Positions 45,608 through 50,631 of a stretch of 51,654 nt of DNA are shown here, one piece after another. Below the pieces are notes generated by a model. It was not told the origin of the DNA. It searched no databases and saw only the letters and a list, made by a program, of their open reading frames with translations. The DNA is from Planctomycetota bacterium (GTDB lineage: Bacteria; Planctomycetota; GCA-002687715; DRQF01): NCBI GenBank assembly GCA_036479435.1, contig JAZGFI010000262.1, positions 1 to 51,654 of the forward strand. The letters are read 5' to 3'. The position numbers and the translations under genes were made by a program. Position 1 is the stretch's first letter, and every line of letters starts with the position of its first letter.

Positions 45608-47595
45608 ATGCTGCTATTTCGACGGACCGTTTGGGCCTTAGTATTCCTCATCTCAATCGCTACTGCCCCCGCCCAGGGTCAAGAAGAAAACAAGGGCGGC
45701 GACCTCCTCAACCGGCGAACCGCCGGGATTGTTGCCGTTGAGGCCCGCGTAGAGGTGGACTTCGGTGAAATGGGCTCGATGATGGGCCTTGGTGACGATG
45801 GGCTCCAAATTGACATCCAGGGTTCCGGCATTGTCCTGCGTGCCGATGGGCTCGTGGTCGTTCCTACTCAAGTTATCGAGATGCAAGTACCAGCCCTCGG
45901 CCCCGGTGGTACCGCCGACGTCGAGCGAACGGGCCTTTGGATCGTGGCGGGAGACGGTGTGCGACACGACGCGAAAGTCGTGGGCGCATCCGAGACTCTG
46001 GGTCTCAGCTACTTAGCGGTGACGGGCAAGGCGACGAAATTCGACACCATTGAGTTCTCAGCCAACGAGAGCATGGCCCTCCCCGGCCAAGCGCTGTACG
46101 GCATCGGCAGACTGCCGAAGCTCTACGGATACGTTCCGCGACTATTGAAGGGCTACTGCAGCGCTGTCATCAAAAAGCCCGTCGCTGGCATTCTCCAAGA
46201 GGGAATCACGGAAACCGGTTTTGCCGTCTTCGACGCCGATGGGAAGTTCTTCGGCATCACGGCGAAGACGCCCACTCCTGACGAGAAAGATCGCGGCGGA
46301 ATAGCGAACGTGCTTCTTGGATCCACAAAGGGCGCGAGCCACATCCTCGTGGTGTCTGGCCAAACAATTCTTGCCGACTTGGCCAAATCCACCGATGGCC
46401 TCACCATCAAGGCTTCCGGGCAAGCGGTCGGCGAAAAACCTGACGAAGGCGCGAAGTCAAAAGCCGAATTCATCGAGTACGCAAAAAGCCGCCTCGGCGC
46501 TGACGACGATTTTCTCGCCAAGTTGTTCAAAGCCGTCGACGTCGACGGTGACGGCTGGGTCTCCACCGAAGAGTTCGAGGGGCGCATGGATGCCATCCAG
46601 AAGCTTCGGCGCCAAGGCGGCGCCAAGGCGGCGACGGCGGCGGCGGCGATGACGGCGAAACACGCCGTCGCCGTCGCGAGCCGACCCCTCCGCGCGACAT
46701 GTCCGACCCTGAGGCCGACTACGACAAGCACGCGCGTCGAGCCGTCGAACGCGATTCGTTTCCGGTTTTCGACAATCCTGAAATGACGGCAGCCAAGGAC
46801 TCGACCCTTGATGATGACGAAGCAATCATCGGCGTCGTTGTGGAAGGCGAAGCCCGCGCCTACCCGGTCGCTGTCATGGGTCACATCGAGCTTGGCAACG
46901 ACACCTGCGGCCAAACCCCCTTCGCGGTCTCGTGGTGACCGCTTTGCCAGACGGCTATCGTGTATAGCCGACGCATCGAAGACCGCGTGCTCAAACTGGG
47001 TCACGAAGGCATGCTTTACCGCAACTCGTTCATCATGTATGACCATCAGACGAATTCGCATTGGGTCCACACCACCGGCGAGTGCGTTAAGGGCAAACTA
47101 AAAGGAAAACAGCTTCGCTTTATCCCCAGCTCAGTGATGACCTGGGGTGCCTGGCGCAAACTCAATCCGATGTCTCTCGTCCTCGAAGGCGAGATGACCA
47201 GAGGTTTCATGGGGACCTTTAGGCTCAACGCCAAAAGCCCCAATCGCTACGGAATCTCTATCGGGCAGGGCGCCACCGCCAAGTTGTTCTCCATCAAGTC
47301 CTTGCTCGTTAACCCCGTCGTTCAAGATCGACTCGGCGATGACGACGTCGTCATCTTTTTCGACAAAGAAAGCCTGCATGCCACCGCCTGGATTCGCGGC
47401 AAGAACGAGTTTCGTCAGGTCGACGGCAAAATCCTCGATCAACGCGGGCGCGAATGGAACGCCATGCTCGGTCAGCCCATCGGTGCTGACAACGCCAGCG
47501 AAAAGATGAGGCCCATTGCGGCGACGGTTTGGCTCATCGAGCGTTGGAGAGGCTTTTACCCCAAAGCATCTTCGCCTTCGCCCAAGGACAAGTGA
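45608..47595 (+). CDS. Predicted secreted selenoprotein: degenerate trypsin-like domain + EF-hand + DUF3179-like domain (UxxC), interrupted by an 11-bp duplication frameshift
   Basis: Signal peptide; EF loop DVDGDGWVSTEE; deleting one CGGCGCCAAGG copy (46607-46628) joins 45608 to the 46699 frame; TGA 46936-46938 reads W-U-P-L-C and the frame continues to TGA 47593-47595 (658 aa, Sec440 if fused; 298 aa, Sec80 from ATG 46699). Confidence 0.8.
46607..46633 (+). repeat. 11-bp tandem duplication CGGCGCCAAGG x2 plus partial third copy
   Basis: Direct reading; lies exactly at the frame switch. Confidence 0.9.
46945..46975 (+). promoter_or_regulatory. Candidate bacterial SECIS element
   Basis: CGGCTAT-CGTGT-ATAGCCG (46952-46970); 20 nt between the TGA and the loop; lower TGC/GCA pairing. 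Confidence 0.8.
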
Positions 47596-47750: not shown

Positions 47751-49385
47751 GTGCCGAAACACACGCTCCGCCTCATCTTCTGCTTTGGTGGCCTGATTTG
47801 CCTGCAAGCCTTCGCCAGTGCACAAGGGCTGCCAGACGGCCCCCTATGGGGCAGAGGTCGCGAGCCAGACGGTGCCAACTCGGTTTTTGCGACCTCCGAC
47901 GGCTGCGCGCTTTGTCACAGTGCGACAGATCGCGCCACTGCCATGCGGGACAAAGCGGGCAACGACATTTCGCCCTACCATCTGTGGCAAACGTCGATGA
48001 TGGCCAACGCCTTTAGGGATCCCTATTGGCGAGCCCAGGTCTCCAAAGCCACCCTGGCGCATCCGAAACAGGCGGCGGATATCGAAAAACTTTGCACCAC
48101 CTGCCACGCCCCCATGATGAGCCACACCGCGCGCATCGCCGGATTTGCCTCCTTCTCTATCCACGAGATCGAAGGCATGGCGCTCGCCGAAGATGGCGTT
48201 TCTTGCATGGTTTGCCACATGGCGCAGCCCGACAATTTGGGAAAAGTCGAGAGCTTCAACGGCAAGCTCGACATCCGCCCGGGACGCACGATCTTCGGAC
48301 CTTACCCCGAGCCCTTTGCCATGCCGATGAGGATATTCGCTGCGGCTAGGGTGACTCAGGGCAAGCACATTCAATCCTCGGCGATGTGCGGCAGTTGCCA
48401 CACCTTGGAAACTCACCATGCGGTCGGCGCCGAAGGATTCCAAGAACAGACGCCCTACTTAGAATGGCTCAACAGTGATTTTGCCGACGGCGCCAAAGAC
48501 GCGAAGTCTTGCCAAGAGTGCCACATGACTAACTACGGCACGACGCGCATTGCCCGCGCGCCTCACCGCGGGGATTTCAACATCCCCCCCCGCCCCAACT
48601 ACCGCGGCCACAACTTTTATGGCGGCAACGCCTACATGCTCGACATCTTCGCCGCCAACCGCGAGACCTTGGATGTGAAGGCCTCGTCCGCTGCCCTGAA
48701 CGCCGCCGCCCAAGCGACGCGCGACCAGTTGGCTAGCTCCACCGCCCAGGTCACGTTGTTGAACACCCGGGTAGAAAAGGGACGTCTGAAGTTCGACGTT
48801 CAGATCGAAAACAAGACTGGGCACAAGCTGCCAAGTGGTTACCCCTCAAGGCGCATCTGGCTCTCACTTGAAATCCGCGACGGCAATAAGCGCTTCTTCA
48901 TGTCCGGCGCCTATGACGATCGAGGCCGCCTAGTTGGCGTCAAAGATCCTCTGGCATTAGCGCATGTCGACACCGTCACGAAAGCCGAACAGATTCCGGT
49001 CTGGGAAACCGTCGTGCTGGACGCCAAGGGCAAGACCACCACAGAGTTGGTAGCCATGGCCCGCTACGGCAAGGACAACCGTCTATTGCCCCGAGGCTGG
49101 AAGAAAGACGGCGCCTTCGCCAAACGCACCACGCCGGTAGGAATCGGTACGGACAAGGACTTCCGTGACGGTAGCGATACCGTTCACTACGACCTTGATC
49201 TGAAAAAACACTCCGGCAAGGGGCTCGTCATCACGGCCAAGCTGCATTACCAGACGATCCCACCCGCTTGGGCCCTGGACTTGGTAGACGTTCCGACTAA
49301 AGAGGCCAAGATCTTCAACGACATCTACAAAAAGATGCCCACGAAGACCGAGATCTTGTCGTCGGACACGAAAACGTTGAAATGA
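47751..49385 (+). CDS. Secreted multiheme cytochrome c (5 CxxCH)
   Basis: Signal peptide; CALCH, CTTCH, CMVCH, CGSCH, CQECH; heme-free C-terminal domain with GHKLPSG. Confidence 0.92.
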   Translation: MPKHTLRLIFCFGGLICLQAFASAQGLPDGPLWGRGREPDGANSVFATSDGCALCHSATDRATAMRDKAGNDISPYHLWQTSMMANAFRDPYWRAQVSKATLAHPKQAADIEKLCTTCHAPMMSHTARIAGFASFSIHEIEGMALAEDGVSCMVCHMAQPDNLGKVESFNGKLDIRPGRTIFGPYPEPFAMPMRIFAAARVTQGKHIQSSAMCGSCHTLETHHAVGAEGFQEQTPYLEWLNSDFADGAKDAKSCQECHMTNYGTTRIARAPHRGDFNIPPRPNYRGHNFYGGNAYMLDIFAANRETLDVKASSAALNAAAQATRDQLASSTAQVTLLNTRVEKGRLKFDVQIENKTGHKLPSGYPSRRIWLSLEIRDGNKRFFMSGAYDDRGRLVGVKDPLALAHVDTVTKAEQIPVWETVVLDAKGKTTTELVAMARYGKDNRLLPRGWKKDGAFAKRTTPVGIGTDKDFRDGSDTVHYDLDLKKHSGKGLVITAKLHYQTIPPAWALDLVDVPTKEAKIFNDIYKKMPTKTEILSSDTKTLK

Positions 49386-49429: not shown

Positions 49430-49457
49430 AAAAGCCCGGCCAAAAGGCCGGGCTTTT
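49430..49457. terminator. Bidirectional intrinsic terminator
   Basis: AAAAGCCCGGCC-aaaa-GGCCGGGCTTTT between convergent genes. Confidence 0.85.
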
Positions 49458-50631
49458 ACTTTAGGTAGGCGCGAAGGTCCCGCGCGGCCTGTGGCGGCAC
49501 GAAGTAGGCGGCGCTGTTTTTGTCCGACAGTTTGGTCGCGAAGCCGATGCTGAACTTGCCCTCGGGCGGGTTCGGCGTGTAGGAACCGCATCCGAAAAAA
49601 TCGCCCTTTGAGACCAAGTCGAATTGCGTGAGCTGGCCCTTCTTCATCCGATAGAAACCAAGGACTTGGCCTTCGTAGCCACGGTCGCCGTTTTTGGATT
49701 CCAGCTTCACCTGCCCCACAATCTTCCAGCCCTTTGGCTGCTTCAAGACTTTGAGCTTTAGTTCTTTCACTTCCTCGACTCGCCACATCGGAGGCTCGCC
49801 TCTGGTGTTGTCAACGAAGTGAAACCTGACGATCCTGCGCTTCAAGCTCTCCGCCAATTTGCCCTTTCTGAGCAACTTGCGCTCCGACTCTAAGATCCAC
49901 AGTCGGTCTTTGCCTCGCGCCGCACGAATCATCTCACTCCAAGTGTTCTTGTTCTTCGGCCACGAGCCCTTCAAGATTCTCGAATGAACGTCAACCACGG
50001 TGGCACCAGCCGGGATATCGCGCTGGTAGCGAGGGTCACTCTTGGACTGGCTTGGGCCTTTGGGCGCGCGCGTCTTCTGGGTAGAGATTGCCTTCAAGCC
50101 ATTTTTGAGGTGCCGCCTGACGCGGCCAGGGTTGCGGTTGTTCCAACCCTGAAAGAGCTCCCCTGAAACCTCGAAAATGTAAAAACCCTGAGTGGTCCGG
50201 CCGAGATGCGCGCCCTCTCGTTGCAAGACGACTTTTCGATAAAAATCCCCCGCAGCATCTTGGCGGCGCGAGTAGTACCAAGCATCGACGGCTACCGGAA
50301 TGTAGCTGCGGCTTAAGAGCGCAACGATCTTTTTGTCAGCGAAGGTGGACGCACGGTCCACCACTCCGTTGTTTCAGACACAGCCCATCGGATGGCCATC
50401 CATGGACCACATGAACAAAGGCCGGCCCTTCTGCGACGATTTCTTAAGGGCCGCCGAAAGGTCGATCTCCCAAGGGATCGTCTCCCACGTGGCAGGTTTT
50501 CGCTGCGTAAGATCTTTGTGAAGGCGTTTGAACTCGGCTTGGCGAAGTGTCTCTTGCCCCCAAACACCTGCTCCGAGTATTCCCAACGCCAAAGCCGTTA
50601 GGCAATGCAACCGATTCAATCGGCTTCTCAA
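49456..50631 (-). CDS. Predicted secreted thioredoxin-like selenoprotein (CxU motif), 391 aa, Sec86
   Basis: ORFs 50374-50631 and 49456-50364 are in frame across TGA 50376-50374: DGHPMGCV-U-NNGVVDRASTFAD; the flanks 'IPWEIDLSAALKKSSQKGRPLF' and 'TFADKKIVALLSRSYIPVAVD' are two halves of one thioredoxin-like domain. Confidence 0.8.
50341..50366 (-). promoter_or_regulatory. Candidate bacterial SECIS element
   Basis: Minus strand GGTGGAC-CGTGC-GTCCACC (50362-50344), stem starting at +12 after TGA; extendable GAG/TTC pairing with a bulged T. Confidence 0.8.

Follow-up and report, generated by a model that had tools for sequence, protein, structure and literature searches.

Selenoprotein N (SELENON/SEPN1) is described as a protein with a membrane anchor, an EF-hand, an SCUG motif and an arginine four residues after the selenocysteine (Sec) (PMC12839072). 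The C-x-U motif as such is not new and occurs in four catalogued families, namely the thioredoxin-like Sec.1 (PF13192), UshA-like (NF041198), rhodanese form 3 (NF041203) and ferredoxin-thioredoxin reductase (NF041072) proteins; a fifth, the Trx7/PDZ family (NF041199), has a Thioredoxin_7-type fold with Sec (Table 1 of PMC13188914). The same source gives a model of the bacterial SECIS element (bSECIS) with a stem of 4-16 bp, a loop of 3-9 nt with G in one of the first two loop positions, a distance of 16-37 nt from the UGA and an MFE of ≤ -7.5 (PMC13188914).

The window analysed here is the whole 51,654-nucleotide stretch of contig JAZGFI010000262.1 from a Planctomycetota bacterium (assembly GCA_036479435.1). 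On its minus strand, two gene calls almost certainly represent a single exported redox protein with selenocysteine at an internal 'stop'. A preliminary description of the DNA had joined an 85-amino-acid upstream ORF (50374-50631) to a 302-amino-acid downstream ORF (49456-50364); the two do lie in the same frame, and its coordinates for the whole gene, 49456..50631, are correct (50631-49456 on the minus strand; 391 codons with a TTG start and a TAA stop). The TTG start is suggested by the spacing of a Shine-Dalgarno-like GGGAG site (50644-50640, minus strand) 8 nt upstream. Read through in the window, the 391-codon frame has one in-frame TGA, at codon 86 (50376-50374, minus strand), in the context GGC TGT GTC TGA AAC AAC GGA GTG, i.e. 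GHPMGCV-U-NNG followed by VVDR. Residues 1-25 (50557..50631, minus strand) form a probable Sec-type signal peptide when read by eye, with a basic n-region, hydrophobic residues 10-23 and cleavage probably after VWG; the 13-residue windows of highest hydrophobicity begin at residues 8-13 and the peak spans residues 8-25. The 391-residue precursor would be exported to the periplasm. A search for a sigma-70 promoter found none. At its 3' end a terminator-like hairpin (49430..49457; -25 kcal/mol, z -4.2), missed by a terminator scan which requires five T, separates the gene from a convergent one on the plus strand (47751-49385) for an exported multiheme c-type cytochrome, which resembles ExtKL weakly (43 bits versus a cut-off of 250).

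A six-frame search of 401 Planctomycetota genomes for the family gave matches in 133. Among the matches listed, nearly all contained one TGA, two contained two and four contained none, and a count by eye found neither TAA nor TAG. The listed better-scoring matches and two others, 112 loci with the window's own gene included, gave 116 thioredoxin-domain matches, whose aligned site was TGA in 109, TGT in one and GAC in two; the rest were three mis-anchored halves of split matches and one match cut at a contig end, and TAA or TAG was seen in none of the 116. In a hand-picked set of 25 full-length database homologues covering the Sec site, 11 had Cys and 14 had neither Cys nor Sec; Trp was absent from this column. 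The preliminary description had looked to a conserved TGA, a Cys in its place and similarity in a constant frame on both sides as support, and to Trp as a refutation; the codon counts and Cys forms bear it out, and the C-terminal domain follows in frame downstream of the TGA in family members. The consensus across TGA members is G-C-[TV]-U-N-N-G, with Arg at Sec+7 in 109/109 and Cys at Sec-2 in 98/109 (11 members lack Cys84). This arginine, Arg93, is also invariant in the alignment with the database homologues, which points to a constraint on the protein and not on the RNA alone.

The genome encodes selA, selB and selD above the family cut-offs together with selC (tRNA-Sec), and its selD itself carries an in-frame TGA. 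At E ≤ 1e-15 the family was present in 111 of 288 selA-positive genomes versus one of 113 selA-negative genomes, a contrast that is descriptive only because the sampled genomes are kin and the counts not independent; the single selA-negative carrier is 67% complete. Those relatives that carry a taxon name are Planctomycetota. The comparative data support the Sec reading, the position of the residue, the fold and the SECIS, and we are close to certain that the TGA at residue 86 (50374..50376, minus strand) is read as selenocysteine. This adds a common selenoprotein family of Planctomycetota, found in over a third of the selA-positive genomes sampled and held in databases mostly as truncated hypothetical proteins.

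The SECIS-like hairpin noted in the preliminary description is present; what speaks for it is that homologues covary in the stem. The predicted core (50344..50362, minus strand) has a 7-bp stem and the loop CGUGC with G at loop position 2; it starts 18 nt past the UGA and folds at -10.9 kcal/mol (-14.8 for the 44 nt after the UGA), falling within all four limits of the bSECIS model given in PMC13188914. Taken alone, the query hairpin does no better than chance (single-sequence folding in four windows, z -0.2 to -1.75). Among 31 distinct close homologues, double-sided stem changes were seen in 22 cells against a shuffled mean of 9 (0/500 shuffles as high), and sliding the pairing lowered the paired fraction from 81% to 24-35%. 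Pair 18:30, both bases of which are third codon positions, keeps Watson-Crick pairing in 32 of 33 subfamily sequences (GC 20, CG 7, UA 5; 0/10000 shuffles as high), although the relatedness of the sequences inflates these shuffle tests. CGT encodes the loop Arg in 28 of the 33, and most of the remaining 73 sequences form a hairpin whose register is shifted and whose loop begins with G. A loose hairpin filter does not separate members, passing 92/109 TGA versus 4/6 non-TGA matches.

Another gene in the window, a DUF3179 gene on the plus strand (46699-47595), is split by an in-frame TGA at 46936-46938 (SW-U-PLC) and has after this UGA a hairpin with the loop CGUGU, similar to the CGUGC of the query; DUF3179 proteins with a UxxC motif are a catalogued selenoprotein family (PMC13188914).

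These observations bear on two readings in which the TGA does not encode Sec. It could be a real stop, either ending a short exported peptide ahead of a separately started 302-amino-acid protein or arising as a fixed nonsense mutation; the downstream part is annotated as a protein of ~300 amino acids in most database matches, and 4 codons past the TGA there is a GTG start. A plain stop would drift to TAA or TAG and vary in spacing, which 0/109 do, and stopping here would cut the thioredoxin fold at its active site. Intact Cys forms exist, family presence tracks selA and the hairpin covaries at third codon positions, all of which make a true stop highly improbable. An altered genetic code in which TGA means Trp, Gly or Cys is scarcely credible: TGA terminates ordinary genes in the window, for example the DUF3179 gene, the genome has tRNA-Trp(CCA) as well as tRNA-Sec(UCA), no homologue has Trp at the column, and we found no support for such a code. 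Even combined, a true stop and other recoding are very improbable.

Selenocysteine at residue 86 would place the selenol in the active site of a thioredoxin-fold domain (residues 45-187; 50071..50499, minus strand) of the DsbD-gamma/AGR/DUF255/DsbH class. An AlphaFold2 model of the Cys-read form, the check proposed in the preliminary description, gave the thioredoxin fold within one two-domain unit (pLDDT 89, pTM 0.87). The likeness to DUF255 proposed there is real and weak: Pfam gave E 0.081 over residues 51-116, and DUF255/Thioredoxin_7 (PF03190, PF13899) scored 13.3 bits versus a gathering cut-off of 27, with no CxxC, each of the two models matching 1/26 family members at E ≤ 0.01. The query family shares its thioredoxin-fold class with Thioredoxin_7, DUF255 (Thioredox_DsbH), DsbD-gamma, AGR-ERp18 and DsbH proteins; unlike these it has no CxxC, a Sec nucleophile and an additional beta domain, and it stays below the Pfam cut-offs. 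When aligned by profile to 3ira (E 0.064), U86 falls at the position of the first CxxC Cys and Gly89 at that of the second, and in the model Sec86 lies directly ahead of helix 87-94. From the alignment and the helix start at 87, the site would have Sec as its only nucleophile, accompanied in most members by a loop Cys, and is not a short CxxU. The C-x-U motif and its selenocysteine stand as the preliminary description gave them, but the motif is not a shortened CxxU, Sec falling on the first Cys of CxxC. Gly89 takes the place of the second CxxC Cys, and Cys84 (50380..50382, minus strand), in the loop ahead of Sec, is a candidate resolving partner.

Downstream lies a beta-rich domain (residues 205-391; 49459..50019, minus strand) with a conserved R-x-x-R-x-H-L-x-D-N-x-R-G loop. 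The C-terminal domain without assignment that the preliminary description had put at ~230 amino acids is thus present, its size being about 187 residues. It has no conserved Cys and gave no Pfam or PDB match. An Atlas structure search with this domain alone returned unnamed bacterial clusters at TM 0.83-0.89 and a calycin-like match at 0.46; none of the rows listed was SelN.

No Pfam or NCBIfam cut-off was reached by the query or the scanned homologues. The nearest NCBIfam selenoprotein model is VPGUxxT (NF041383/NF041382), in its type 2 form, with a best score of 27 bits versus a cut-off of 275 and weak matches in 4/20 proteins over the first 65-70 profile positions; that family has a different motif, and the similarity is limited to the active-site region. 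The catalogued CxU families have the motif in common with the query, and NF041199 a Sec-containing fold of the Thioredoxin_7 type; their models match neither the query nor the homologues scanned. Like the preliminary description, we recognised no named family for this protein, either in the 2026 table of 119 families in PMC13188914, as far as available to us, or in NCBIfam/Pfam; the string 'Planctomyc' is absent from the text of PMC13188914. We found no planctomycete mention in the available portions of PMC12013277, PMC13326102 and 10.1101/2022.07.06.499078. Table S9 of PMC4807772 includes among its planctomycete candidates a gene labelled 'hypothetical' and two labelled 'thiol-disulfide isomerase-like thioredoxin'. 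In the literature, as far as the sources were available, no description of the family or of a permuted SELENON relative was found, the families of Haft and Tolstoy (2025) being compared through a review table and NCBIfam. The family is real and apparently uncatalogued; it would be a further form of the thioredoxin-fold selenoproteins, probably with swapped domains relative to selenoprotein N.

The query family looks like a distant relative of selenoprotein N, a protein linked to muscle disease in humans; this relationship was not seen in the preliminary description. Queried with a natural Cys homologue, an Atlas feature search ranked 'Selenoprotein N' at the top (0.91, 196/256), a lead only because shuffled proteins reach 0.9 in 4-10/100. 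Scanning metagenomes with a short degenerate motif gave 60 loci; these include ten distinct full-length animal-type frames with a hydrophobic anchor, an EF-hand and SCUG, and also intronless bacterial-type SelN-like genes. We call these frames 'SelN-type' because they fit SELENON as described in PMC12839072; the label is set by description and no tool named them. With hhalign, the thioredoxin profile of the family matched SelN-type profiles at 96.4% (bacterial) and 94.8% (all), with E from 1e-9 to 5e-8, and an animal-only SelN-type thioredoxin profile at 35.7% (E 4e-4). Fold searches gave the same top PDB neighbours for the query-family and SelN-type models. Homologue searches with SelN-type queries returned two unnamed proteins each and no named SELENON.

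Common to the query family and SELENON are Sec at the equal place in the same thioredoxin subclass, Gly at +3, Arg at +7, a presumably extracytoplasmic location and, probably, a second beta-rich domain. The order of the domains differs, with thioredoxin before beta in the query family (the beta domain lies downstream in 115/115 matches with the motif) and beta before thioredoxin in SELENON and its bacterial relatives. The motif is C-x-U in the query family versus S-C-U-G in SELENON, and the query family has no EF-hand, no membrane anchor and, where SelN-type proteins have the F-P-V proline, T-T-Q-G; Pfam found no EF-hand in the query, and EF-hand_6 matched 9/16 SelN-type rows. In a quick, unrooted tree of 125 columns, from which no direction of transfer is claimed, a long branch with full support separates the family from both the SelN-type proteins and a CU sister family; by this branch it is not a SELENON orthologue.

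Genes in SELENON order, with an S/A-C-U-G type motif, were present in 11/401 Planctomycetota genomes (L162-L172) and on metagenome contigs L118, L131, L142 and L158; the frame of L166 is apparently lost ahead of the thioredoxin domain. These same-order bacterial relatives would be even closer models of SELENON. The animal-type SelN-like frames L143, L155 and L124 have a strong hairpin directly after the UGA (-22 to -29 kcal/mol), resembling the described SRE of SELENON. A bacterial SELENON orthologue has reportedly been found in Poribacteria.

Comparison of the beta domains gave mixed results. By eye, the order of elements is alike in both models (strand, helix, strand and two helices, followed by five or six strands and a last helix). 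Eleven more genes were added to the bacterial SelN-type beta profile. A profile of 19 distant members aligned with SelN beta over 173 columns (E 0.003), above 300/300 block shuffles, and one of all 115 members over 197 columns (E 0.0086), with 6/198 shuffles as high; across all beta-versus-beta pairings, E ranged from 0.003 to 0.3, the best being picked from many, with HH probabilities of ≤10%. The bacterial SelN profile matched member L214 in two colinear pieces at 19.5 bits (E 2.8e-6 among 115), the best reversed control reaching 7.3 bits. Not significant were the query-anchored beta profile with secondary structure (32/120 shuffles as high), shallower beta profiles (matched by 1/60 and at least 3/60 shuffles) and the animal-only SelN beta profile (E 0.06-0.3). 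With hmmsearch the family beta profile had no match in SelN-type proteins or the CU sister family, and the SelN beta profile run over the 401 genomes found 11 SelN-order loci and no query-family members, G000 included. The fold searches of both whole models filled with thioredoxin matches and hence barely tested the beta domains. On the profile matches we consider it likely that the beta domain has common ancestry with the SelN middle domain, the domain order being swapped (circularly permuted). The Sec-thioredoxin and beta pair would then, with similar likelihood, be an ancient bacterial envelope unit and the source of the animal SELENON core. If so, a small soluble unit with natural Cys forms would make the substrate and chemistry of selenoprotein N easier to approach, and kinases and FecR proteins would also have taken over the same unit as their outer sensor.

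Turning to function, the fold and the conservation pattern incline us towards a periplasmic, selenol-based and substrate-specific oxidoreductase or reductase. SelB, bound to the in-frame SECIS, would bring Sec-tRNA to the UGA to give the 391-residue precursor, which would pass to the periplasm. The nucleophile would be Sec86, at the N-terminal end of the active-site helix, with the invariant Arg93 nearby presumably supporting the selenolate. Sec86 may attack a specific substrate at an oxidised sulfur group, be it a disulfide, a sulfenic acid or a peroxide, to form a selenenyl-sulfide, which loop Cys84 could resolve in most members before a periplasmic donor brings about re-reduction. The substrate or partner site may be provided by the beta-rich domain and its conserved DNxRG loop. 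The lack of a second CxxC Cys, and T-T-Q-G versus the F-P-V of SelN-type proteins, argue for a dedicated envelope oxidoreductase and not a general disulfide isomerase. We infer export, the catalytic cycle, the roles of Cys84 and Arg93 and the substrate from the fold and conservation.

The same selenoprotein might instead be a sensor or binder, its Cys-x-Sec binding a soft metal or metalloid or being reversibly oxidised while the beta domain signals to a partner, with no turnover. The two-domain unit stands behind FecR in 4/10 and behind Ser/Thr kinase domains in 4/10 of the database proteins scanned, and at L063 it follows a kinase and Kelch repeats with its Sec intact; the FecR and kinase fusions among the database proteins, together with the 14/25 homologues without Cys or Sec, indicate that the fold also serves non-catalytic roles. 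PMC12839072 assigns SELENON the roles of a calcium sensor and a redox regulator, and CU/CC motifs are argued to mark heavy-metal binding (10.1101/2022.07.06.499078). Most genomic members, however, are stand-alone exported proteins, there is no recurring metal-resistance neighbourhood, Sec occupies the canonical nucleophile position and the FecR fusions lack both Cys and Sec. We regard such a role for the window's protein as possible and rather doubtful, and prefer the oxidoreductase.

Scanning 96 of 144 flanking ORFs revealed no common pathway, and the repeated flanking families (VWA, GSDH, PNP and DUF1501) are apparently confined to a few loci each. Several loci have unusual arrangements. The gene at L063 (2211-6896, minus strand) encodes a Ser/Thr kinase, Kelch repeats and the two-domain unit with Sec, and an adjoining paralogue has Asp at the Sec site; at L060 (2525-4372, minus strand) a PA14 domain is N-terminal to a Sec-containing member. 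L029, L064 and L069 have tandem family paralogues, the L064 pair being one member with Sec and one without Cys and Sec. The gene at L070 (G116:C190) carries an additional in-frame TGA, located in the opening strand of its beta domain, and is either a protein with a second Sec or a broken gene. The CU sister family is represented by L071 (3030-4184; G000:C46), a sister selenoprotein with the motif GRFDEEFC-U-ANG, in which C and U are adjacent, and a different C-terminal part. It gave no NCBIfam match, and its matches occurred in 65/401 genomes, mostly with one TGA and with up to 12 per genome.
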